A stretch of 51,777 bases of DNA from sequence record MZ501069. One strand, written 5' to 3'. Position 1 is the first letter of the stretch. Each line of letters starts with the position of its first letter. This DNA is from Escherichia phage FritzSarasin. The position numbers and the translations under genes are program-made. Shown here piece after piece: positions 28,376 through 43,266 of the stretch. The notes below the pieces were generated by a model. The model was not told where the DNA came from. It did not search any database and was given only the letters and a program-made list of their open reading frames with translations.

Positions 28376-30373
28376 ATGATTCCAAATATCGAAAAACAAA
28401 TATCAGCGTTAGGCGAGGCAGTAATAAAAAGCATCCAAGAGCGATTCACGGTTGGCAATATAGTGCCTTATCCTTATCAGTGCGTTGCGTATGCCGAGAT
28501 CGCAAAGCGCATGAAAAACTATGAGCATCCTTTCTTTGTTAAGGCTTCTGTGTCGGCTGGCAAAACATTGATGTTTGCGATGGTTGCTGCGCAATGCCGC
28601 AAAATGGGATTGAAAATGATGGTCCTTGCTCGCCAGGCTGAAATTGTTGATCAGGATTCGGAAGAGATCAGCAATCTTGGCGTGCCAAACTCAATCTATT
28701 GCGCCGGACTGAAAACAAAAAGCGCATACTTTCCGATCGTAGTCGGTTCTGAGGGCACTGTAGTAAACGGATTGTTTAAGTCGTTAGGTGATTATGTTCC
28801 GCACGTTATCGGTATTGATGAATGTCACCAGGTGGATTGGGAGGATCTCGCCGACGCGATAGAAAATAATGAATCTTACCAGCAGATGACCACTAAGAAG
28901 GATTTGCCTGTACTGATTGGAGAAGAACAGCAATTTGATTCCAATGGCGATCCAATGTTCGGAACAGGGCGCACACAGTACACCGTAATAATCATGGAAA
29001 TGATGCGCAGGTGTCGCGAGGCATACGGGCACGAATTGCGAATATTCGGTATGACTGGATCTGAGTTTCGCGGCGTGGTTCCAATACTGGTCGAAGATAA
29101 GAACAAAAAGGGATTCTGGCGTGAGCAGGTGACTAACATAGACACAAACTACTTAATCAAATTTGGTTCGGTAGTGCCAACAAATTTCGGCGACGTAGGC
29201 GACCTGGGGTATGACCTTTCAGAGTTCGAAGCCAGTAGCGAGGATGGCGTTTCAGACTTTGACGCTAAAACATTGCGCAAGATGGAAGAAAAAATCCATC
29301 AAGACGCAACAATGACACAGAAAATCATGGCTAAAGTCCATGAGATATGCAAAGACAGGAACGGAGTTTTAGTTACATGCGCAGGGGAAAGACATTGCAA
29401 GGAGGCCGCCGCCGCACTGCCGCAAGGCGTTGAATACAGGATCATAACTGGCAAAACTGGAGATAATCAGCGTAAAGAGTGGCTGAGGGAGGCATACGAG
29501 GGGAAAGTAAAATACATCTTCCAGGTACAGGCGCTTACCACTGGCGTTAACGTTCCGTTTTGGGATACTTCGGTAATACTGAGAAAGATAGGATCTCTAA
29601 CATTGCTTATCCAGCTTTTGGGGCGCGGTATGCGACTGCTTAAGCAATGGCACATTGAGCAGGGATTCAAGAAAAAAGACCATCTTGTATTGGATTTTGC
29701 CGGTACTATGGATGAGTTAGGGGATTTGTATTTCGATCCAATCCTTGAGCAAGCGCAATTCCAAAAGAGATTTACAAACGGGAAAGAGCCTAAGACTTGT
29801 CCGATATGTGGAACGCTAAACAGCTTTTACGCTCGCCGATGTATGCACGTAGACGATAACGGGAAGAGATGCGAGCATTTTTGGACTTACAGAATTTGCG
29901 AGGACCAGGTAGATCCGAGAACGAAAAAGATAATCAAGCGCGGTTGCGGAACAAAAAACGACGTAGTGGCGAGAGTTTGCCGTTGTTGCGATATTTCTCT
30001 TGTCGATCCTAACGAGAAGTTAAGCGGTAAGCACTACACCAAAAACGATTGGTGCAACGTTAAATCTTTCCGCGTTGATATGACGAAAAACCAGAAAGGA
30101 ATTGTTTTTTGCTATGAGCTTGAGGCCAACGGCGACACGTTCAAGGCATACGAAAGATTTTTCCCTGAGTCAGAAAGCAACATTTGCCGGACGATATGGA
30201 GAAAAATAGCATTGCAGCACATACCGGATCGCAAGATTGCTGGTATGGTGGCGAGCTATAGAAATGCGCGTAAAATAATGTCATACGCTCATCACATCAT
30301 GCCTCCTGTACGCGTAACGCATCGCAAAAACGGCAAAGGTGAGGATAACATTGCAAAACGGGAGTTTGTTTAA
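28376..30373 (+). CDS. SF2 DEAD/DEAH-box-like helicase
   Basis: 665 aa; Walker A ASVSAGKT, motif II IGIDECHQ (DExH); Cys-rich C-terminal region. Confidence 0.8.
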   Translation: MIPNIEKQISALGEAVIKSIQERFTVGNIVPYPYQCVAYAEIAKRMKNYEHPFFVKASVSAGKTLMFAMVAAQCRKMGLKMMVLARQAEIVDQDSEEISNLGVPNSIYCAGLKTKSAYFPIVVGSEGTVVNGLFKSLGDYVPHVIGIDECHQVDWEDLADAIENNESYQQMTTKKDLPVLIGEEQQFDSNGDPMFGTGRTQYTVIIMEMMRRCREAYGHELRIFGMTGSEFRGVVPILVEDKNKKGFWREQVTNIDTNYLIKFGSVVPTNFGDVGDLGYDLSEFEASSEDGVSDFDAKTLRKMEEKIHQDATMTQKIMAKVHEICKDRNGVLVTCAGERHCKEAAAALPQGVEYRIITGKTGDNQRKEWLREAYEGKVKYIFQVQALTTGVNVPFWDTSVILRKIGSLTLLIQLLGRGMRLLKQWHIEQGFKKKDHLVLDFAGTMDELGDLYFDPILEQAQFQKRFTNGKEPKTCPICGTLNSFYARRCMHVDDNGKRCEHFWTYRICEDQVDPRTKKIIKRGCGTKNDVVARVCRCCDISLVDPNEKLSGKHYTKNDWCNVKSFRVDMTKNQKGIVFCYELEANGDTFKAYERFFPESESNICRTIWRKIALQHIPDRKIAGMVASYRNARKIMSYAHHIMPPVRVTHRKNGKGEDNIAKREFV

Positions 30374-30792
30374 TGGCTATAACTGATAAAGGCGATTATC
30401 TTGAGTTTTACGAAAGGGATCCAACCGACACGAGAAGGGAAGTTAATCACCAGATAGATAGTTTTCAGTGGTTGACTTATGCTCATCCTTATTTGCTGGC
30501 GTGGCATACGGTAAACGAGAATGAGAAGTCTAAAGTAACGGCGATGATTGATCAGCAGTCCGGCTTGGTTAAGGGAGTAAGCGATTTCATCATCCTGATT
30601 GGTTTAAACGGAAAATACCCCTTTGCAGCGATTGAGATCAAACGAGTGAATAAATCAGGCAAGGGGAAAGCATCACCAGTCAGCGATGAACAAAAGGCTT
30701 TTTTGCGTCGCGTTCGCAGCTTAGGAGGATTCGCTGCGGTAGCCTACGGATTCAATCAGTTTAAGTTGGCTATTGAATACATGCTTAAATAG
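30373..30792 (+). CDS. VRR-NUC domain nuclease
   Basis: 139 aa; core GVSDFIILIGLNGKYPFAAIEIKR fits the D...E.K pattern; start overlaps helicase stop. Confidence 0.55.
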   Translation: MAITDKGDYLEFYERDPTDTRREVNHQIDSFQWLTYAHPYLLAWHTVNENEKSKVTAMIDQQSGLVKGVSDFIILIGLNGKYPFAAIEIKRVNKSGKGKASPVSDEQKAFLRRVRSLGGFAAVAYGFNQFKLAIEYMLK

Positions 30793-30808: not shown

Positions 30809-30872
30809 TGGCGCGATGGATTGCGCCATAATTCAATAACACGAGATGGCTTTTAATAGCGGAGAAATGAAA

Positions 30873-31598
30873 ATGGCTAAAGATATTTTAGATAAAGACA
30901 CCCATGACGCATTCGTTAGCTTTGAGCAGTTGGAGAGAGAAACGTTTATAGGGAATGCCCTTGCAACTGGAGGCCATTACCAGGCAGTAAAGCCAAATCA
31001 ATATTATAAGGTAAGCGGAAACCGATACGCTGGAAGCACTACGCCGGACGTTGTGCGCGATATGTGGAGTACGCCTCAAGAGATCGTGGAGTGGATGGAA
31101 TCAGAATTTGGTGAATACGATCTCGACGCGGCAGCAAGCCAGGAAAACGCAGTTTGCGAGAAGTTCTATAGCAAGGAGACAAACTGCTTAAAGCGTTGGT
31201 GGGGTAGCAACAAGCACGTATGGCTTAACCCGCCGTACAGCAACCCAACTCCATTTATCAAGAAAGCAATTGAGCAAATGGAGCACAACAACCAAATTGA
31301 TGTTTTGTTGCCAGCAGACAACTCTACAGCATGGTTTTATGAGGCGCAGAAAAACGCGGCTGAAATCATCTGGATCACTGGTGAGGTTTACGAAGAGGGT
31401 GGAGTAGAATACTCCCGCACCGGAAGAATCGCCTTTGTGTCTGGATTGACTGGCGAGCCTGTGCAGGGCAACAACAAGGGAAGCGTGATTTTTGTCATGC
31501 GCAAACTTAAAGAAGGCGAGGAGCAGAAAACGCGATACGTTAAGATCAGCGATATTTGCCCTTCTGTAACCGAACGTCGCGCACGCAAACGGAGCTAA
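30873..31598 (+). CDS. dam: DNA N6-adenine methyltransferase (Dam-like)
   Basis: About 241 aa from ATG 30873 (GGAG RBS); NPPY catalytic motif and DLDAAAS block. Confidence 0.75.
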   Translation: MAKDILDKDTHDAFVSFEQLERETFIGNALATGGHYQAVKPNQYYKVSGNRYAGSTTPDVVRDMWSTPQEIVEWMESEFGEYDLDAAASQENAVCEKFYSKETNCLKRWWGSNKHVWLNPPYSNPTPFIKKAIEQMEHNNQIDVLLPADNSTAWFYEAQKNAAEIIWITGEVYEEGGVEYSRTGRIAFVSGLTGEPVQGNNKGSVIFVMRKLKEGEEQKTRYVKISDICPSVTERRARKRS

Positions 31599-31602
31599 CA
31601 CG

Positions 31603-31860
31603 ATGGAAAAAGAGAGAAGCGTTTATTTAAATGAAACTGGCGAGTGGTTGTTATTTCGCGCTATGGTGTGCGATGCACTTGATAAAAACCCTAACGTGAA
31701 AAAGATGATTGATTGCGATCCGTGGGAATTTTCAAGCGCATTAGATATGAGCTTTGAGGAGACAAGAAAACTCCCGCTTGAAAAATGGCACGAACAAATC
31801 AGAAATGACATGCAAGAGTTTGTCGATTCGTGGAATTTTCAGCACGGAATGATCCACTAA
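31603..31860 (+). CDS. hypothetical protein
   Basis: 85 aa with GGAG RBS; stop TAA embedded in the next motif copy. Confidence 0.55.
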   Translation: MEKERSVYLNETGEWLLFRAMVCDALDKNPNVKKMIDCDPWEFSSALDMSFEETRKLPLEKWHEQIRNDMQEFVDSWNFQHGMIH

Positions 31861-31879
31861 TAGCACTTTTTGTTAAAAC
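31859..31879 (+). promoter_or_regulatory. conserved promoter-module motif copy (rightward)
   Basis: AATAGCACTTTTTGTTAAAAC, hairpin GCCCGGCCTAGTGTCGGGC, CATAAT; ATG 77 nt downstream. Confidence 0.6.
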
Positions 31880-31935
31880 GCCCGGCCTAGTGTCGGGCAT
31901 AATTATTTCAACGAAGCAAACATGAGGAAATAAAA

Positions 31936-32115
31936 ATGGTGGTATTCGATAAACGCGCTTTTAATCTTGCTCAAGAAGTAGCAAAAGGTTCAGTGGATGG
32001 CGGTTCAAAGGAAGGATTCCAGTTTGATTGGGAGATCGCAATGTTTTTACTGAAAGTTGCATACGGTCACGCACCAATTGAACAAGCGGAGGCATATTAT
32101 AAGCATGAAGGTTGA
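31936..32115 (+). CDS. hypothetical small protein (not in ORF track)
   Basis: 59-aa ORF with GAGGA RBS at the expected distance from the motif copy. Confidence 0.4.
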   Translation: MVVFDKRAFNLAQEVAKGSVDGGSKEGFQFDWEIAMFLLKVAYGHAPIEQAEAYYKHEG

Positions 32116-32347
32116 GCAAGGAAGAGATGCGGTATGGAATCACGCTAAAGAATGCGGTATTGCCGACGATATAAAGAAGATCGCGCAATACTTTGATATT
32201 GCAGATGTGAGCATAATTAGCGGCGACAAGATGACTTTCCTCAAGGAAAGGCCGCGAAAAATGGTAAGAGTTCCAGCAGTTCCAACAAAAATTGATTTCA
32301 AAGAGGCAATGGCTAAAATCCGAGAGCCTCGCAAATATTATAAATGA
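32105..32347 (+). CDS. hypothetical protein
   Basis: 80 aa from ATG 32105 (MKVEQGRD...); overlaps previous small ORF. Confidence 0.4.
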   Translation: MKVEQGRDAVWNHAKECGIADDIKKIAQYFDIADVSIISGDKMTFLKERPRKMVRVPAVPTKIDFKEAMAKIREPRKYYK

Positions 32348-32441
32348 GGATAGTTATCATGTGGCGCTTGTTTGTTCTACCGTTACCCGTTATCATCGCT
32401 GTTACAGTTATGTACCATATAGTGATGAGATAGGTAGCAGA

Positions 32442-33557
32442 ATGAAAAATGTAAAAATTACAGATGAGCAATTCAAGATCGAACGGGCGGCAGGTAAGAC
32501 ATATAAACAGATCGCTCAAGAGTACGGGATGAATGTGAGAAGCGTCGAGCGTCGCGCGGCGCGTCTTGCAAAGCAAGGACAGTTATCGACCATCGGAGCG
32601 CCTGGTTTTGGTGTTCATGGTGAGTCAGTAATGACTGACAAAGAAGGAAATATAATCCTCAAGTGGACCAAAACCAGCAAGGATAAAGAGCAATTAGAGG
32701 CACTGATGCGCGCAGCTATGGAGGCGTTTAGCGAGGAAGTGCCGCGATTAGATCCAGTTCCATTTCAGGAGCGTAATTATAATGAAACGCTTTCATTGTA
32801 TCCGATCTTTGACATGCACTTAGGAGCTATGGCCCATAAGCACGAATGCGGCGAAAATTGGGATACTGCGACGGCAGAGCGCGTTATGAATAACTTTATC
32901 GACTATGCTTTGATGTGCGCGCCGGACAGCGAAAAGGCTGTTATCCTGATTGGTGGCGATATGCTTCATAGCGATGGCCTGGAGGCTGTGACACCTGCAA
33001 GCGGTCACGTACTTGATCAAGATAGCCGATATGCAAAATTGGTTTACGTTGCAATCCGTGCAATGCGTCGCGCAATTAATAAAATGCTGTTAAAGCATAA
33101 ACATGTTGAGGTCCAGATCGTAGAGGGGAATCACGACCAATCAGGAATGATTTGGCTACGCGCAGCAATGGCGGCAGCATATGAGAACGAGCCGCGCGTT
33201 TACGTTGATGTTTCTCCTCGCGTTGTTCACCACACGCAATACGGAAAAACTTTCCTTGCGTACCATCACGGGCACACAGTGCGTAAACCGGAGGCTTTGC
33301 TAATGATGTGCGCGTCAGATTGGCGGGAGGACTTCGGAAACTCAAAAACGATGTATGCGCACGTAGGGCACTGGCATCACCAGACCGTGACAGAAACGTC
33401 GCTTGGCATCGTGGAGGTGCATAGCACCCTGGCGGCAAAAGACGCATACGCCGCGCGAGGTGGCTGGAGATCTCGACGCCGTGCGGCGGTTATCATTTAC
33501 GACAAAGAGCATGGAGAAGTCGGGCGATTTGTTCACTATCCAGAAATGATGAATTGA
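32442..33557 (+). CDS. calcineurin-like metallophosphoesterase with N-terminal HTH-like region
   Basis: 371 aa from ATG 32442; motifs DMHLG, GGDMLHSD, GNHD, HHGH, GHWHH match the metallophosphoesterase series (SbcD/Mre11-like); N-terminal KQIAQEYGMNVRSVERRAARL resembles an HTH. Confidence 0.6.
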   Translation: MKNVKITDEQFKIERAAGKTYKQIAQEYGMNVRSVERRAARLAKQGQLSTIGAPGFGVHGESVMTDKEGNIILKWTKTSKDKEQLEALMRAAMEAFSEEVPRLDPVPFQERNYNETLSLYPIFDMHLGAMAHKHECGENWDTATAERVMNNFIDYALMCAPDSEKAVILIGGDMLHSDGLEAVTPASGHVLDQDSRYAKLVYVAIRAMRRAINKMLLKHKHVEVQIVEGNHDQSGMIWLRAAMAAAYENEPRVYVDVSPRVVHHTQYGKTFLAYHHGHTVRKPEALLMMCASDWREDFGNSKTMYAHVGHWHHQTVTETSLGIVEVHSTLAAKDAYAARGGWRSRRRAAVIIYDKEHGEVGRFVHYPEMMN

Positions 33558-33604
33558 TGAATTTTTATTTAACTCAATGACAAATTAAATCAAAAACTTG
33601 CAAA

Positions 33605-33632
33605 GGGGCGGCGTTTGTCGCCTCTTTTTTTT
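33605..33632 (+). terminator. rho-independent terminator
   Basis: GGCGGCG-TTTGT-CGCCTC followed by TTTTTTTTG. Confidence 0.55.
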
Positions 33633-33704
33633 GTTTAAATTTTTATCATGTGCGTTTATTATGCGGTTAATATATTGACTTTTAATTAATATGGAGCATT
33701 AAAA

Positions 33705-33920
33705 ATGAAAGATTTTATTAACGCAGCTACCGCCGGATCTGGCGGTTCATCTATCGCAAGCGCCGCTACAGGTCAGTTAACCATTGCTATTGCCAGCTTT
33801 GTTTTAATGGCTGCATTCGGTGCGTGGGGCGCTTACCTTCGCTGGCGTGATAGTAAAAAATTCCACGAGGCGATCGAAAAAGGTGATATTCAAAAAGCTA
33901 TTGAAATCAGGGGCAAGTAA
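33705..33920 (+). CDS. putative holin
   Basis: 71 aa; one hydrophobic transmembrane stretch and charged C-terminus; directly precedes endolysin with overlapping TAATG. Confidence 0.6.
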
Positions 33921-34411
33921 TGAGCATCAAGAACAGGGTGGCGGCGGCGGCCTTTGGCGTTGCGGTTGCCTTGACTTCTCCACTTCTTGAAGAGATCGAA
34001 GGGGTAAGATACAAGCCATACAAAGATATTGCGGGAGTATGGACGGTTTGCGCAGGAATCACCGGACCCGATGTTATCCTGGGGAAAACGTACACTAAAA
34101 AAGAGTGTGATGATTTGTTGGCTAAGCATATCCAGGTTGCTAAAAAGGAAGTTGACAAGCAAGTTAAGGTTGACATTCCTGATAGTATGCGTGCAGCAAT
34201 GTACTCATTCACTTACAATGCAGGTGTGGGAGCTTTCAGAAATTCAACAATGCTGAAACTCATCAACCAGGGGAAATTAAAAGATGCTTGCGATCAGCTT
34301 TATCGTTGGACGTATTACCATAACCCCAAAACAGGAAAGCGCGAGAAGTCTAAAGGCTTACTTAACAGGCGCAAGGTCGAATACAAATATTGCACAATGG
34401 ATCTGAAATGA
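33920..34411 (+). CDS. endolysin (lysozyme-like, probable signal-anchor-release type)
   Basis: 163 aa; hydrophobic N-terminal segment [17 protein letters not shown] followed by a lysozyme-like catalytic region; lysis-cassette position. Confidence 0.8.
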
Positions 34412-34803
34412 TGAAGAAATTTTTACTTACACCAATCGCAATGGCGGTGATCTTGTCTGGATGTTCAAGCGTTACGCCACTGACCGGATTAATCGGCAGT
34501 AAGCCGGAAATCACAGCACAGGCTGGCGCGGAGAACGTGAGGCAGACAGTTGGCATTACAGCAAAGCAGGACGCCAGCACAAAACAGGAAACCACAATAA
34601 AGGAATCTGCGGTTGACAAGGTGGACACGTCCAGCAAGAAGGATTTCACAACATCAACCATTCAGGCCAATACCATCAAGGCAGACAAAATTCAGATCGT
34701 GCAGGGTAATAACGGCAGATGGTACGATCCAATAATCATATGCGTGGTTGTGTTAATTGTGCTGATTTGTCTTTACTGGAGAGAAAAGAAAAAGGAGGCT
34801 TAA
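34408..34803 (+). CDS. unimolecular spanin
   Basis: ATG 34408 overlaps endolysin stop; N-terminal lipoprotein signal with lipobox ILSGC and C-terminal transmembrane helix [16 protein letters not shown]. Confidence 0.75.
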
Positions 34804-34819
34804 TGCCTCCTTTATTTTT
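34794..34819. terminator. bidirectional terminator
   Basis: AAAAA-GGAGGCTTAATGCCTCC-TTTATTTTT between convergent spanin and leftward gene. Confidence 0.6.
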
Positions 34820-35042
34820 ATGCGTCGGGCCACATATGAGTTTCGTTTGTTGGCTTGTTCGATTCGTCATACTGCCTTACTTCAATGCTGCAAGTGTCGC
34901 CATACATTTCTGCAATCTTGCGCTCATTTTCAACAGCCGATTGCTCACTCCATCCAAAATCCCTGTCATAAATTGTCGGGATTTCAGCAGAAGATCCGTT
35001 GTCATGATTATATACGCGAACTACTAAAAACTTGCTGGACAT
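34818..35042 (-). CDS. hypothetical protein
   Basis: 74 aa; driven by the leftward motif module at 35103-35123. Confidence 0.55.
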   Translation of the reverse strand: MSSKFLVVRVYNHDNGSSAEIPTIYDRDFGWSEQSAVENERKIAEMYGDTCSIEVRQYDESNKPTNETHMWPDA

Positions 35043-35102
35043 AATTTTACCTTTTGGTTGTTTCGTTTCGATGAAACAAATATACCCGACACTAGGCCGG
35101 GC

Positions 35103-35123
35103 GTTTTAACAAAAAATGCTATT
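35103..35123 (-). promoter_or_regulatory. conserved promoter-module motif copy (leftward)
   Basis: Minus-strand reading AATAGCATTTTTTGTTAAAAC + GCCCGGCCTAGTGTCGGG + TATAT; nearly identical to the inverted copy at 31859. Confidence 0.6.
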
Positions 35124-35239
35124 CCATACGCTTTACCGTAACCAGTAATACACCATCATCATTGCATAAAACATGTTCAGTGGTGCTAAAAGCGCGCATA
35201 TCTGAATAAAGTATCGTAAGTAAAGCATGAATAAAATCC

Positions 35240-35635
35240 TCATGTGATATTGAATTTACGGCGCAGTGCTTCAAGATCTTGTCTATTAGCTTTTGCCTGG
35301 AACAATTCATCATCGCCCATCTCCCCTATTCTAGCCATATCCCTGATCCAGTCGTTGCGCATACCATCCAGGCTATACAATTCGAATCCGAAAGGCCGCT
35401 TTGACGATCCTTTGGACCAGTATTTACCGCAGACCCCATCTATATAGCCAGCCGTCATCATTCTTGCGCAAAATTCCTTAGATGCAAGGCTGGCGAACAT
35501 TCGCGGCGTAAGTCCGGCGGCCCGTGCGAGCCGCTCACATTCTCTATGATGATAGATAAATTTGGCTATGTGCTGCCTGTTAAACCAGTCGTATGACTCA
35601 CACCATTTATACAGATCAAGCAAAAACATAATCAT
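35240..35635 (-). CDS. hypothetical protein, coupled to upstream P-loop ATPase
   Basis: About 131 aa; start overlaps stop of the ATPase gene (ATGA); no recognisable motif. Confidence 0.5.
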   Translation of the reverse strand: MIMFLLDLYKWCESYDWFNRQHIAKFIYHHRECERLARAAGLTPRMFASLASKEFCARMMTAGYIDGVCGKYWSKGSSKRPFGFELYSLDGMRNDWIRDMARIGEMGDDELFQAKANRQDLEALRRKFNIT

Positions 35636-37212
35636 CCCAGCAGTATTGGATTGACAAAAATAACACCATTAATCACACAAACATAATTTCTTTCTTCCAG
35701 CATTGGCAGCAAGTGCCCTTCTATCCTCTTCATTACGCCAGCTTGACCAACGAAAGGTTTTACCTTTCTCGCTGATTCGTACAGGGCGCGAATATTCAGA
35801 ATCCCTTTATTAGCCTTGCCGTGTCTAGTGATCAATTCAATCAATTTGCCCATTTCAGCATCATCACCAGCATAACCAGAAGCATTGGCGGCGCTAATGT
35901 ATGTTTTGCTCAATTCCTGAAACATGATCAGCGCCTCTTGCATTGTTTCCACGTCGATCTCTTTCGACTTCTGCGGGTATCCAGCAGGATTAAACCAGTT
36001 GCGGATAACATGCAGGACGGAAGCAAGCCTGATCACCTGTTTATCCATTTTACCCAGCGCACCGCGTAACATTGTATGAGAATACTTTCCGCCGTCTGCA
36101 AGATGCGGTTCCATATCCTGGCGAGCAATGTTGAGCACTCGCATAGCTGAACGGCTTATTTTCAGCGATATATTTGATTCGCTCATGATGTTATGCACCA
36201 ATTGATAATATTGGGCCTTCAATTCAGGATCCACCGCCTCATAGGTAGAATCACCATTTTCATCAATGAATGAGCGACGGCCTAAGAATGATTCCTCACG
36301 GACCAACAAAAAGCGCTCACTCACACCGATACCGCGCGATCCAGCGTCCATGATTCCGCTTATCGTTTCATCCTGGGCTATAACGCTCATACATCCAAGT
36401 GCGCGAAAACTCATGTTATTGTCAGCATTAGCACGGGCAATTGATACGTGACCATTATCCCACGCCTTAAGCACTAGCTCGCTGTTAGTCTTCCTTTCGC
36501 TATTGGCATAGGTCAAGCCTAACAGGCTGTTAATACTTGTTGCTTCGTCAGATATTACGGCAAAGTTACCTTGCTTGTTGTTGATTTTCGCCAAGCCTTC
36601 TGGAGTGGTATCTGAAACAGGGAAAGTTATATCACACATCTTTTCCAGCTTCTCCTCCAGATCCTCTTTTTCCTGGTATAGAGATTCCATATCAGCGCCT
36701 GATCTTTCGCTTTTCATCTCCTTTGCAAGACCTGCCAACTTTGCCTGTATTTTCTTTCTTTCCTTGCGGCGTTGCTCGTTGATCTTCTCAACTTCCGCAA
36801 TCATCGGAGCAATAGCCATACTGTTGATCGCAGATTTACCAGTTGACGGCGGCTGGCTTGTAACTACGTAAAGCGCAGTCGGCTGATCGGTTCCGTGATA
36901 GTCAACTGTAAAGCGCCCAAGCATAGCGGCAGAAATGCAGCCGATAAAGTGCATGTAAGCCGATGATTCAGGGAATTGAACTGATCGCGCAATGCTGCGT
37001 GATAACTTGCCGACAACATCAATATCATTACCAAGAGAAATTACGGGGTAGCGATCGTGACCGCTATTTACATCCTTTACGTCGCCCCAAAAGCTGGACG
37101 ACTGGCGATAGCCGTTAGCCTGAATTGATACGCGAACTGGCGAAAGGTTCTGGCTTTCAGCCATAGCGATTATTTGCTGTGGAGTTAATTTGTTCGTTTC
37201 TAATGAAAACAT
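35632..37212 (-). CDS. P-loop NTPase of unknown function (DUF3987-like, unverified)
   Basis: 526 aa; Walker A-like PPSTGKS and Walker B-like AVISDEA; charged coiled-coil segment; long C-terminal domain with no recognisable motif. Confidence 0.6.
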   Translation of the reverse strand: MFSLETNKLTPQQIIAMAESQNLSPVRVSIQANGYRQSSSFWGDVKDVNSGHDRYPVISLGNDIDVVGKLSRSIARSVQFPESSAYMHFIGCISAAMLGRFTVDYHGTDQPTALYVVTSQPPSTGKSAINSMAIAPMIAEVEKINEQRRKERKKIQAKLAGLAKEMKSERSGADMESLYQEKEDLEEKLEKMCDITFPVSDTTPEGLAKINNKQGNFAVISDEATSINSLLGLTYANSERKTNSELVLKAWDNGHVSIARANADNNMSFRALGCMSVIAQDETISGIMDAGSRGIGVSERFLLVREESFLGRRSFIDENGDSTYEAVDPELKAQYYQLVHNIMSESNISLKISRSAMRVLNIARQDMEPHLADGGKYSHTMLRGALGKMDKQVIRLASVLHVIRNWFNPAGYPQKSKEIDVETMQEALIMFQELSKTYISAANASGYAGDDAEMGKLIELITRHGKANKGILNIRALYESARKVKPFVGQAGVMKRIEGHLLPMLEERNYVCVINGVIFVNPILLG

Positions 37213-37264
37213 TCGTTAGCTTCTCCTTTGTGGGCCGTAAATTTTAACGGCCCAATACTACCCC

Positions 37265-37285
37265 GTTTTGTCAAAAAGTGCTATT
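37265..37285 (-). promoter_or_regulatory. conserved promoter-module motif, variant with TTGACA (leftward)
   Basis: Minus-strand reading AATAGCACTTTTTGACAAAAC, 22 nt, TAAAAT inside hairpin GGGCCG...CGGCCC; ATPase ATG 74 nt downstream. Confidence 0.55.
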
Positions 37286-37502
37286 TGATCCGCTCTATTG
37301 CAACCAGAAGTCGATCAGGCTGGCGGTCGCTGTAGCATTCTCCTGTAATCCCATCCTTAAACGTAAAGTAAAGCGCCTTATGATATGAAAAACCAATCAG
37401 CCAACCTACCGCCGTTTTTTTGATGGGCCTGACTATATCGCCAGGCTTGAAAGTCTTTGTGGTAGAATTCGTTACTTTGTAACGGTTTTCACTGTTTATC
37501 AC
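37281..37502 (-). CDS. hypothetical small protein (KxGD motif)
   Basis: 73 aa; contains FKPGDIV motif. Confidence 0.5.
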   Translation of the reverse strand: MINSENRYKVTNSTTKTFKPGDIVRPIKKTAVGWLIGFSYHKALYFTFKDGITGECYSDRQPDRLLVAIERIK

Positions 37503-37885
37503 AGATATTTGCCCTCAAACAGATAACAGCCGCCAGCAGAGAATCCGACCTCTTCACGGTACAGGTTCCAGCGGTCGCCGCACTCATCAAAAACATAACC
37601 CGCAACGCTTCCAAGCGGTCGCCCTTTCTCGATCTGGTATCGCTTGCCCTGCTTAAAGTGCTTTTTGCACGGCATGTTATGATCTACAAACGTGCAAAGA
37701 ACGGTTTTTGTGTTAATGGCGCGGTAATCATCTCGGTTTGCTGGAATCCAGCGACTACCCTTAACAAGCGTCTTAACTTGGAACTCTTCCACCTCGATCA
37801 CATCATCACTTCCTGCAATCTTCTGATAAACCGTTTTAAAACGGCCTTTCATCAATACGTTGGTTTCATTACAGATAACATTCAT
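37499..37885 (-). CDS. hypothetical protein
   Basis: 128 aa; driven by motif module at 37939-37959. Confidence 0.55.
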   Translation of the reverse strand: MNVICNETNVLMKGRFKTVYQKIAGSDDVIEVEEFQVKTLVKGSRWIPANRDDYRAINTKTVLCTFVDHNMPCKKHFKQGKRYQIEKGRPLGSVAGYVFDECGDRWNLYREEVGFSAGGCYLFEGKYL

Positions 37886-37938
37886 GATCAGATCTCCTTT
37901 GTTTGTTCGATGTGATTATGCCAGGTTTTTACACCTGG

Positions 37939-37959
37939 CTTTTAACAAAAAGTGCTATT
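37939..37959 (-). promoter_or_regulatory. conserved promoter-module motif copy (leftward)
   Basis: Minus-strand reading AATAGCACTTTTTGTTAAAAG + hairpin CCAGGTGTAAAAACCTGG + CATAAT. Confidence 0.6.
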
Positions 37960-38662
37960 TTGAGTTTGACTCAAAGACGGCGCGAGCAAATCCGCGCGGA
38001 GTGAGGGAGCGGATCATCTTTGTGCGCGATGACTTACCGCCAGTTTTGGCCCAGCCTGGATTATCTTTGTCTTCCTCTTTCGGCAGGATTAAAGCGCGCG
38101 GAGGAATAACAAAGCCGTTGCCAGTCCAGAGGCACGTTTTCTTAAAATAGCGATCCCGTGCCGGAATAATATCAGGGAAGTCGGGATGTTTATCATCTTC
38201 CGGCAGATAGCCAGCGTAATCGCACGGATGGAACGTATAATCAGGCTTTCGCCATAACGTTGACAACTTGCCAACCGGATTTTCGATCATGTAAGGAACA
38301 CCGAAATAATCAGCTATATCAGCCGCGATTCTGCAAGTGTCGGCGGCCTCATCCTGGAACGATGGATTCTCAAGGCGTTTTTTGGCCCAATGGCGAGATC
38401 CGCTATTTGCAAGGTCGGTGCATGGTGGGAAGGCCATAATAAAATCAGGATTGCCCCACTCATTATTGATTGCCTTAACATAAAAAGCATCATCAATCCA
38501 GACGTTAACGTATTCGATATTCTCATGCTGTATGCGCACTGACTGGTAATCACCGTGATCGCCGCCGTCAGCATTAAAGCAAATGCACTTATAGCCATTA
38601 TCAGCCCAATCTTTAACAGCTTTACCAGATCCATCAAATAGGGAGAATATTAAACCTTTATA
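37955..38662 (-). CDS. compact DNA (cytosine-5)-methyltransferase-like protein
   Basis: About 236 aa from ATG 38662 (MYKGLIFSLFDGSGK); motif I FSLFDGSG, PC motif AFPPCTD, ENV-like MIENPVG; shorter than typical C5 methyltransferases. Confidence 0.55.
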   Translation of the reverse strand, partial: YKGLIFSLFDGSGKAVKDWADNGYKCICFNADGGDHGDYQSVRIQHENIEYVNVWIDDAFYVKAINNEWGNPDFIMAFPPCTDLANSGSRHWAKKRLENPSFQDEAADTCRIAADIADYFGVPYMIENPVGKLSTLWRKPDYTFHPCDYAGYLPEDDKHPDFPDIIPARDRYFKKTCLWTGNGFVIPPRALILPKEEDKDNPGWAKTGGKSSRTKMIRSLTPRGFARAVFESNSK

Positions 38663-38675
38663 CATCGTAATTACC

Positions 38676-38900
38676 TCAAAACGGAAAACAGCGCGCACAA
38701 CCATGATCGAAATCGCATCCACAATCATTAACAATCATAGTGGGATCTGCAAATATTGCGCTTGATTCAAGATCCATATCCATATCACCTAAAGCCTCAT
38801 CAAGAGTCTTAATTTTATATGCCACTTCAAGCGCCGCCTCTTTATTTAGTCCGGCATCTTCTGCCATTTGAAGGCGCTCAAAAAAACCGTCCTGACTCAT
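38676..38900 (-). CDS. hypothetical acidic protein with C-terminal cysteine cluster
   Basis: 74 aa; about 16 acidic versus 5 basic residues; ends CGCDFDHGCARCFPF. Confidence 0.5.
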   Translation of the reverse strand: MSQDGFFERLQMAEDAGLNKEAALEVAYKIKTLDEALGDMDMDLESSAIFADPTMIVNDCGCDFDHGCARCFPF

Positions 38901-39013
38901 CGCATAACTCCCTTAATAACAGCCAAGATAATAGCCAGGCCAGCAGCAGTAACCAAAAATCCAACCGCGCCAATAATCGAATAAAAAAAGAAATCAATAG
39001 CTTTATCTATCAT
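38897..39013 (-). CDS. putative small membrane peptide (not in ORF track)
   Basis: 38-aa hydrophobic ORF MIDKAIDFFFYSIIGAVGFLVTAAGLAIILAVIKGVMR with RBS GAGGTGA; stop overlaps next ATG. Confidence 0.3.
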   Translation of the reverse strand: MIDKAIDFFFYSIIGAVGFLVTAAGLAIILAVIKGVMR

Positions 39014-39055
39014 TTTTCACCTCATTTAAAAGGCGGCAAAACGCCGCCAGATTAA

Positions 39056-39283
39056 TTAAAGAGCGCGCCAACTTTGAATATAGAAAGCGTTTTCTTCCAG
39101 TAATTCTTTTACCTGATCTTTATTGTATTTGCGCACCTTACCGCCTGGATGGATACCAATAAGATAGCCGCCTTTGCCCTCGGTGATAGTGATTTGGCTA
39201 ATTCCGCAGGACTTATCAAGTTTTACAGCCACGCGGTGATGAGCGTCAATAGTTGCCATAATGTTTAAAACTTTTGCTTTCAT
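39056..39283 (-). CDS. hypothetical protein
   Basis: 75 aa ORF in leftward operon. Confidence 0.5.
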   Translation of the reverse strand: MKAKVLNIMATIDAHHRVAVKLDKSCGISQITITEGKGGYLIGIHPGGKVRKYNKDQVKELLEENAFYIQSWRAL

Positions 39284-42742: not shown

Positions 42743-42770
42743 TTGACACGCACCAAATAGCTTTTATAAT
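42743..42770 (+). promoter_or_regulatory. consensus sigma70 promoter (TTGACA-N16-TATAAT)
   Basis: Perfect -35 and -10 hexamers about 30 nt upstream of ATG 42802. Confidence 0.65.
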
Positions 42771-42801
42771 GCGCCAACAGTCAACAACTGGAGGAAAGGA
42801 A

Positions 42802-43266
42802 ATGGAACAGAAGACCACTAAGGACTATTGCGATTGGCTTCGCGAGCTTGGTCGCCGCCTGGCTAGTGGCGATATTGAAGAGTATAAAATGTCACTAATT
42901 GACCTGGCCGGAATGTTAAGCGGTGACGACTGCTACAAGATCACGCGCAGTTCATCCTACAGCCGGACCATTATCAACCGCGTTCCAGAAGTAAGGGCCG
43001 CAGGTCGGGTAAGTATCAAGGTCGAGGAAACGGAAGATGATAAATTTTACGTTTTCCGCATGGTGCGCGAATCGAAAAGGAAAATCATCACACCCGAAGA
43101 ATTGCCAGCCATAAAGGCAAGGGCGATCAAAAAGTTTGCCGATCGCTTACTGGCAGCAATCCCGAACATCGTGGACCTGGAGGGTGATAAACTGGCTGGA
43201 GCTTGTGAGGGCGTAAGCCGCTACCAGGATATGATTCGCGAAATCATCAAAGAGGAGGAGCAATAA
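42802..43266 (+). CDS. hypothetical early protein
   Basis: 154 aa from ATG 42802 (RBS GGAGGAAAGG); track start 42769 lies inside the -10. Confidence 0.55.
   Translation: MEQKTTKDYCDWLRELGRRLASGDIEEYKMSLIDLAGMLSGDDCYKITRSSSYSRTIINRVPEVRAAGRVSIKVEETEDDKFYVFRMVRESKRKIITPEELPAIKARAIKKFADRLLAAIPNIVDLEGDKLAGACEGVSRYQDMIREIIKEEEQ

Follow-up and report, generated by a model that had tools for sequence, protein, structure and literature searches.

In the 51,777-bp stretch of DNA from Escherichia phage FritzSarasin (sequence record MZ501069), which we call the window and which, going by its sequence, is the complete genome of a T1-like coliphage (Drexlerviridae, Warwickvirus), two genes for DNA methyltransferases of different classes drew our attention. 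One encodes a T1-type phage Dam, an N6-adenine DNA methyltransferase of 241 residues, on the plus strand (30873-31598); the other encodes a compact orphan C5-cytosine DNA methyltransferase of 236 residues, often called a phage Dcm, on the minus strand (37955-38665). Both had been noticed in an earlier reading made by a model from the letters and their translations, without database searches (the sequence-only reading). Here we describe what lies at the two loci, how the compact enzyme relates to known C5-methyltransferases, and what the pair may do for the phage and cost it.

The Dam gene extends from an ATG at 30873 to a stop codon at 31596-31598, with a GGAG at positions -13 to -10 of the ATG (9 nt upstream); were translation to begin at another in-frame ATG, at 30846, the protein would have 250 residues, and this longer form is the annotation used in relatives. 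The protein scored far above the curated cutoffs of both models that define the coliphage T1 Dam family, Pfam PF05869 (E-value 9.8e-62, 208 bits; cutoff 28.1) and the NCBIfam equivalog TIGR01712 (phage_N6A_met, phage N-6-adenine-methyltransferase; 181 bits, cutoff 97), and it matched phrog_111 in PHROGs (5e-88). Direct translation places NPPY, motif IV of amino-methyltransferases, at residues 119-122 (31227-31238, plus strand), and a motif of the S-adenosylmethionine (SAM) binding type, DLDAAAS, begins at residue 83. The sequence-only reading had called 30873-31598 a Dam-like N6-adenine methyltransferase with an NPPY motif, and the three family matches and the translation bear this out. The gene also lies in a T1-like replication/recombination module beside a helicase and a VRR-NUC nuclease, and we saw nothing notably different about it. 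Phage JLBYU19 carries a 100% identical Dam labelled N-6-adenine-methyltransferase, homologues were found in 1,876 phage records, and a search by sequence for a solved structure of a Dam relative found none. The specificity of T1 Dam is GATC.

The gene of the compact enzyme is 711 bp long with its stop codon. Its ATG occupies 38663-38665 and is preceded by a Shine-Dalgarno sequence, GAGG, read at -12 to -9 (38674-38677, minus strand), the last G of which, a C on the plus strand, is position -9. The sequence-only reading had the right open reading frame (ORF) and the right length of about 236 residues, but it ended the gene at 38662, which is 3 nt short: translation of 37955-38662 begins at Tyr2. 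A mechanical ORF reaching to a TTG at 38734 (259 residues) overlaps the upstream gene at 38676-38900, and translation probably does not begin at that TTG.

Translation and a family alignment identify three catalytic motifs in the compact enzyme, all on the minus strand: motif I, the SAM-binding loop FSLFDGSG (residues 7-14, 38624-38647); motif IV, FPPCTD (residues 79-84, 38414-38431), with the catalytic nucleophile Cys82 (38420-38422); and motif VI, IENPVG (residues 127-132, 38270-38287), which is of the ENV type with Glu128. The family consensus of motif I, SLFDxTG, is a DNMT3-like variant (DNMT3 has SLFDGIATG), motif IV aligns with the PC motif of both E. coli Dcm and DNMT3, and in E. coli Dcm the sequence aligned to motif VI is LENV. 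Further along the protein, RDRYFKKTCLWTGNGF (residues 170-185, 38111-38158, minus strand), placed by alignment and model, probably represents the motif VIII region together with strand beta-7 and holds K175 and K176, which have been proposed as substrate-binding; the segment IRSLTPRGFARAVF (residues 218-231, 37973-38014, minus strand) falls in the C-terminal helix region by the same two criteria and may be the equivalent of motifs IX/X.

To define conservation we used an alignment of 70 full-length homologues of the compact enzyme (35-56% identity). Five residues were invariant (C82, P130, P147, Y173, and P188), a further nine (D31, F79, P80, E128, N129, D171, K175, T177, and W180) were conserved in at least 90% of the sequences, and so were four residues near the C-terminus (R219, P223, G225, and A229); within motif I, L9 alone reached 90%. 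Since C82 and P130, as well as F79, P80, E128, and N129, are kept across these homologues, the motifs are not a product of chance. The claim that FSLFDGSG, FPPCTD, and IENPVG occur in canonical order was thus upheld by the translation, and residues within these motifs are conserved in the family.

An AlphaFold2 model of the compact enzyme built from the family alignment had high confidence (predicted local distance difference test 94.6, predicted template modelling score 0.91). Foldseek searches with this model against PDB ranked DNMT3A/B/C first (E-value about 1e-7), and against the BFVD viral models they led to phage cytosine methylases. The structure prediction for a methyltransferase fold that the sequence-only reading had proposed as a check therefore returned a C5-methyltransferase fold. 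As a C5-enzyme fold is predicted and the catalytic Cys and ENV-type Glu are in place, the earlier identification as a C5-methyltransferase is right, and the model supports that the compact protein has a genuine C5-cytosine methyltransferase fold with intact catalytic residues. Alignment to catalytic domains takes in about 190 of the 236 residues. In the model, residues 177-182 form a strand, and 213-220 and 224-234 form helices; from beta-7 to the C-terminal helices there are thus just ~35 residues (183-217), in the place where, by our assignment, the target recognition domain (TRD) would usually stand. The suggestion that the protein is much shorter than typical C5 enzymes and may lack a standard TRD agrees with this alignment and model.

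The family to which the compact enzyme belongs is large: there were 5,596 matches in 90% clusters, and clustering at 50% identity left 1,193 representatives, most of which have 210-260 residues. By tblastn, homologues were found in 1,498 of 50,697 phage records, where they are usually labelled DNA methyltransferase or Dcm; carriers include Drexlerviridae, Dhillonvirus, rV5-like phages, Webervirus, and Arthrobacter phages. Protein identity was 100% with the copy in Escherichia phage orkinos and 98% with that in tunus. The enzyme matched phrog_757, 'DNA methyltransferase' (6.7e-85), and we saw no difference of substance from annotated genes of this PHROG, although some records have it as a hypothetical protein or place the start further upstream. 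A 563-residue metagenomic homologue (P0241) has the compact C5 module fused to a D12-class N6-adenine methyltransferase (PF02086, 2.5e-48); the extensions of other larger homologues contained no Pfam domain. Among the 120 homologues listed, none carried a precomputed Pfam domain, and the C-terminal half of the compact enzyme searched alone gave no match. We also looked beside distant homologues for a partner or specificity subunit and found no recurrent neighbour, the adjoining genes being ordinary phage genes such as terminase and portal. As a separate observation, some very large phage proteins of the helicase type include the compact C5 module as a domain (BFVD A0A6J5SE15, 1397 residues, and A0A6J5NPY6, 1126 residues).

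The name Dcm given to these phage proteins invites comparison with the host enzyme. E. coli Dcm and other M.EcoRII-type enzymes share with the compact enzyme the superfamily fold, the chemistry, the PC and ENV motifs, and, presumably, the target site; E. coli Dcm has 472 residues, whereas the compact enzyme has 236 and lacks both the N-terminal Dcm domain and a large TRD. When the family profile of the compact enzyme was compared by hhalign with a profile of 23 Dcm orthologues the probability was 0.5% (E-value 0.13); the PC and ENV motifs do line up with E. coli Dcm in hhalign (single sequence and orthologue profile), at a level that is not significant. PF18284, the N-terminal Dcm domain, was not found in the compact enzyme, while all of the Dcm orthologues carry PF00145 plus PF18284. 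We considered the compact enzyme as an orthologue of host Dcm and ruled this out on the profile-profile probability and the missing PF18284. Because it is no orthologue of host Dcm, the label is a functional analogy or nickname.

Outside its own family, the compact enzyme has detectable sequence similarity to eukaryotic DNMT3A/3B/3C alone, and this similarity covers motifs I-IV only. A comparison by hhalign of the family profile with a DNMT3 profile, which was confined to motifs I-IV as the DNMT3 homologues we retrieved were exon-sized fragments, gave an E-value of 3.3e-5 and a probability of 72% (SLFDG...PCxDL). An approximate query for the DNMT3A catalytic domain aligned over motifs I-IV alone (E-value 7e-4), which we treat as a lead only, and a phmmer search of PDB sequences returned DNMT3B alone at a non-significant E-value of 0.6. 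Both DNMT3 and the compact enzyme have a small recognition region. The compact enzyme differs in being viral, in its 13-18% identity, in being about 50 residues shorter, and in having no regulatory domains; the target of DNMT3 is CpG, in contrast to what is probably a pentanucleotide for the compact enzyme.

A published counterpart of the compact enzyme is the Dcm of phage K42 (KarlJaspers strain Hzau42; Drexlerviridae, about 51.7 kb), which triggers retron Ec86/Eco1 (Wang et al., bioRxiv 10.1101/2023.08.16.553469; Cell Rep 2024;43:114857). According to the preprint (bioRxiv 10.1101/2023.08.16.553469), all four K42 escapers of Ec86 had lost the function of the 711-bp dcm gene, which was deleted, frameshifted, or changed from C to A 9 bp before the start codon, and expression of K42 Dcm was toxic only together with Ec86, being tolerated in MG1655 without the retron. 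The same authors chose C82, E128, K175, and K176 for mutation from an AlphaFold model superposed on DNMT3A, and found by liquid chromatography coupled to mass spectrometry (LC-MS) that 5-methylcytosine (5mC) in the multicopy single-stranded DNA (msDNA) of the retron was high with wild-type K42 Dcm and not with the C82A/E128A/K175A/K176A mutant. Mutation of CCTGG in the msDNA stem-loop to AATGG, ACTGG, or CATGG abolished defence in all three cases, and a compact Dcm was encoded by 34 of 35 Ec86-sensitive phages (bioRxiv 10.1101/2023.08.16.553469).

The window resembles this system closely. Both genes measure 711 bp and come from Drexlerviridae phages of about 51.7 kb, the residues C82, E128, K175, and K176 are identical in kind and number in the window protein, and the K42 escaper mutation at -9 fits the -9 Shine-Dalgarno base of the window gene. 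Judging by the kind of phage, the length of the gene, and the numbering of the residues, the window enzyme and K42 Dcm appear to be one protein, a conclusion that is not easily doubted. That MG1655 is itself Dcm+ might seem at odds with Dcm as a trigger, but for retron Sen2 the multicopy msDNA is under-methylated by endogenous Dam, and it takes overexpressed Dam or Dam from a phage to trigger the system (Bobonis et al.); as the same logic can hold for Dcm, there is no contradiction. Betrayal of the phage to retron Ec86, as published for K42, is the sole documented consequence of the short enzyme.

We next consider the target sites in the window itself, where expected counts were obtained with a maximal-order Markov model over the whole of 1-51777. 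GATC (315 observed, 323 expected), CCWGG (120/126), and GCGC (354/367) all occur at expectation. In contrast to these, many restriction-type palindromes are strongly and selectively depleted, including TCCGGA (0 observed, 21 expected), AAGCTT (2/22), CCSGG (3/22), GATATC (0/14), GGCGCC (2/17), GCCGGC (0/12), CTGCAG (0/9), and GGWCC (14/42). A control sample of 50 kb from E. coli K-12 showed no avoidance of CCSGG (95/94). The phage loses many restriction sites yet keeps two that are covered by its own or its host's methyltransferases. These counts offer no more than circumstantial support for layered protection against restriction by the pair, a putative role that the sequence-only reading had suggested and that we find plausible. 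By analogy with host Dcm and from the msDNA mutants, CCWGG is the likely target of the compact enzyme.

Taken together, we are confident in a joint reading in which a T1-like phage carries a T1-type Dam and a compact C5-methyltransferase, with likely targets GATC and CCWGG, a putative benefit against restriction, and a cost in the presence of Ec86. In both proteins the active site of a methyltransferase is intact, and the two would act as orphan DNA methyltransferases, without a partner endonuclease. Dam would transfer a methyl group from SAM to the N6 of adenine through its NPPY motif, with GATC as the target by family precedent. The compact enzyme would consist of nearly nothing but a catalytic Rossmann-type domain, and for its mechanism we apply, by inference, the standard C5-methyltransferase scheme: Cys82 of motif IV (PPC) would attack C6 of a flipped-out cytosine, Glu128 of motif VI (ENP) would protonate N3, and C5 would receive the methyl group of a SAM bound through Asp31 and the SLFDG loop. 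In place of a large TRD, the conserved region 137-217 (WRKPD...YAGYLP...RDRYFKKTCLWTGNGF...), which includes K175 and K176, may contact the DNA. The benefit to the phage would be fast, high-level methylation of GATC and CCWGG in replicating phage DNA whatever the Dam and Dcm status of the host, which may protect it from restriction enzymes aimed at these two sites; the cost would be that cytosine methylation of the msDNA stem-loop switches on the abortive-infection filament of Ec86/Eco1, as published for K42.

Several points weigh against parts of this reading. The compact enzyme had no match in Pfam, PF00145 (DNA_methylase) included, or in NCBIfam at E-values up to 1, and the profile built from the 70 homologues found only Rossmann matches to short-chain dehydrogenases among PDB sequences and no C5-methyltransferase; the comparison with Dcm orthologues given above points in the same direction. 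The presumed identity with K42 Dcm is drawn from how long the gene is, how its residues are numbered, and what type of phage carries it. CCWGG specificity was assumed in the preprint from host Dcm, to which the compact enzyme shows no relation in sequence, and searches of the literature turned up neither a methylome of a phage nor a study measuring specificity directly for the compact family. As for the benefit, methylation by host Dam and Dcm alone could equally explain why GATC and CCWGG are not avoided, as could a scarcity of restriction enzymes for these sites in Dam+ Dcm+ hosts. In the BASEL work, moreover, restriction acted very strongly on most Drexlerviridae, and the presence of methyltransferase genes did not account for this in any simple way.

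Given these points, we asked what else the compact enzyme might do. It could be an active DNA C5-methyltransferase whose target is not CCWGG but a site that is shorter, degenerate, or different, or a hairpin or single-stranded-like substrate such as msDNA. Its want of any detectable sequence relation to host Dcm would suit this, as would its nearest structural and sequence relatives being DNMT3, which read a dinucleotide, and the mere ~35 residues that separate beta-7 from the motif IX/X helices; the site claim in the preprint combines analogy with msDNA mutants that could also disturb contacts with the effector. Even so, defence was lost with each of AATGG, ACTGG, and CATGG, and the genome keeps CCWGG while strongly avoiding its siblings CCSGG and GGWCC. 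K-12 McrBC restricts R-5mC DNA, and broad purine-C methylation would be expected to be toxic by that route, whereas the enzyme was tolerated in MG1655 without the retron. On balance we consider a target other than CCWGG unlikely, while giving it some weight. It is likewise doubtful, though worth stating, that the phage enzymes of ~230 residues form a minimal C5 clade, nearest to the catalytic domains of DNMT3 and not to bacterial Dcm-type enzymes, whose site, read by ~35 residues in place of a TRD, is perhaps not CCWGG but shorter or different, and which possibly act as a DNMT3-like dimer.

Two further alternatives concern the chemistry. DNMT3, an ordinary SAM enzyme, has an Arg at the motif X position corresponding to R224, and this weighs against the idea of a CmoX-like carboxymethyltransferase, in which the compact enzyme would use host carboxy-S-adenosylmethionine (Cx-SAM) to make 5-carboxymethylcytosine and not 5mC. 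The idea draws on the Pro-Pro-Cys of motif IV common to both (FPPC here, SPPC in CmoX), on the usual Arg near motif X (PRGF, R224), since in CmoX an Arg replaces Asn304 of HhaI, and on the supply of Cx-SAM by E. coli CmoA. CmoX itself (PDB 8yf3; PMC12783734) is a phage DNA cytosine C5-carboxymethyltransferase of 333+ residues with SPPC and a conserved Arg350, is associated with CmoA and CmoY of phage origin, and has GC as its target, whereas no CmoA- or CmoY-type gene was present among the window ORFs scanned and the window enzyme has neither as a neighbour. Given also that the signature is SPPC rather than FPPC, that some family members have K, Y, A, or L instead of R224, that the Arg of DNMT3 occurs in a SAM enzyme, and that 5mC, measured by LC-MS against a 5mC standard, rises with wild-type K42 Dcm, we regard carboxymethylation as very improbable. 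The missing canonical TRD and the lack of a Pfam DNA_methylase match would also be compatible with an RNA (DNMT2-like) m5C methyltransferase or with a DNA binder that has the methyltransferase fold and is inactive in vivo, but the catalytic Cys and Glu are conserved through 70 diverse members, one homologue is fused to a D12 DNA adenine methyltransferase, and the msDNA 5mC increase published for K42 was lost in the catalytic mutant; we give this idea hardly any credence. Finally, both enzymes may be active while their main value is not evasion of restriction, but mimicry of the host's methylation, by which MutH/mismatch-repair nicking and SeqA binding would be avoided, or tuning of phage gene expression or replication. 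The BASEL phenotypes with no simple link to methyltransferase genes, the usual hosts that are already Dam+ and Dcm+, and the heavy reliance of the phage on avoiding many other restriction sites all leave room for such a role. Against it, phage orphan methyltransferases are classically anti-restriction, the retron literature treats Dam as acting against restriction-modification, and there is no direct evidence for any of the alternatives, and we think it rather unlikely.

The pair of a Dam and a small cytosine methylase is already known, being standard in T1-like phages and routinely annotated, by now in hundreds of genomes. The report on Shigella phage 2019SD1, for example, names one gene a 'putative Dam' and another a 'cytosine DNA methylase' and makes the identical guess of restriction escape. 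The novelty implied by the sequence-only reading is not supported, given these annotations and the earlier description of the small enzyme as the Ec86 trigger; with that role already published, the finding carries little weight as a discovery. What the Dcm label conceals is that the compact protein is no orthologue of host Dcm; it is among the smallest natural C5-methyltransferases, nearly devoid of a recognition domain, and was missed by curated domain libraries. So small a methyltransferase with a defined specificity could be of interest for studying how DNA methyltransferases read sequence, and it could matter for genome editing with retron Ec86/Eco1 in strains exposed to such phages.

The surroundings of the two genes fit a T1-like phage. 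Terminase genes stand at the start of the window, and the overall gene order is that of a T1-like siphovirus. Set against the Warwickvirus phages tonijn, tiwna, Sip, and NorthRox, its DNA identity is 97-99%. The region around both genes has 98-99% DNA identity with Escherichia phages tonijn, tiwna, tonnikala, and vB_Eco_Sip, the last of which is classified in Drexlerviridae, Tempevirinae, Warwickvirus, and a 25-kb stretch was 96-98% identical to NorthRox, mar001J1, and tonijn across 85-91% of its length. Scans of the window for tRNAs, Rfam families, and tandem repeats found none, and no third methyltransferase was found among its other mid-sized ORFs.

Dam is located in the rightward replication/recombination block. 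Upstream of it lie a 665-residue helicase (28376-30373) and, directly adjacent, the VRR-NUC nuclease (30373-30792, plus strand; PF08774, 6e-10), the start of which overlaps the helicase stop, with base 30373 common to both. Downstream of Dam is a DNA-repair exonuclease (32442-33557, plus strand; phrog_704, 1.3e-148), followed by the lysis cassette at 33705-34803. The start of the exonuclease is uncertain, as its mechanical ORF reaches a TTG at 32292, 50 codons further upstream, and its N-terminal region gave a weak helix-turn-helix signal (Sigma70_r4_2 at 0.0017, below the cutoff).

The compact enzyme is instead located in a block of small leftward genes to which no function is assigned, between a 74-residue ORF upstream (38676-38900) and a DUF3987 helicase-like gene downstream (35632-37212). 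The small genes flanking it, encoding 73, 128, 74, and 75 residues (37281-37885 and 38676-39283, minus strand), matched only PHROGs of unknown function (phrog_12725, 2684, 9323, and 4344). Genes adjoining the compact enzyme appear to be dispensable, since a 2,262-bp deletion in one K42 escaper took dcm together with three neighbours. The DUF3987 gene (minus strand) encodes 526 residues with matches to DUF3987 (5.9e-44) and to phrog_2373, 'DNA helicase' (3.6e-244); its product has a P-loop-like PPSTGKS and is merely a 'hypothetical protein' in close relatives and in T1. Further to the right, a rightward accessory block contains a gene for a DUF7174 protein of unknown function (42769-43266, plus strand; 4e-51).

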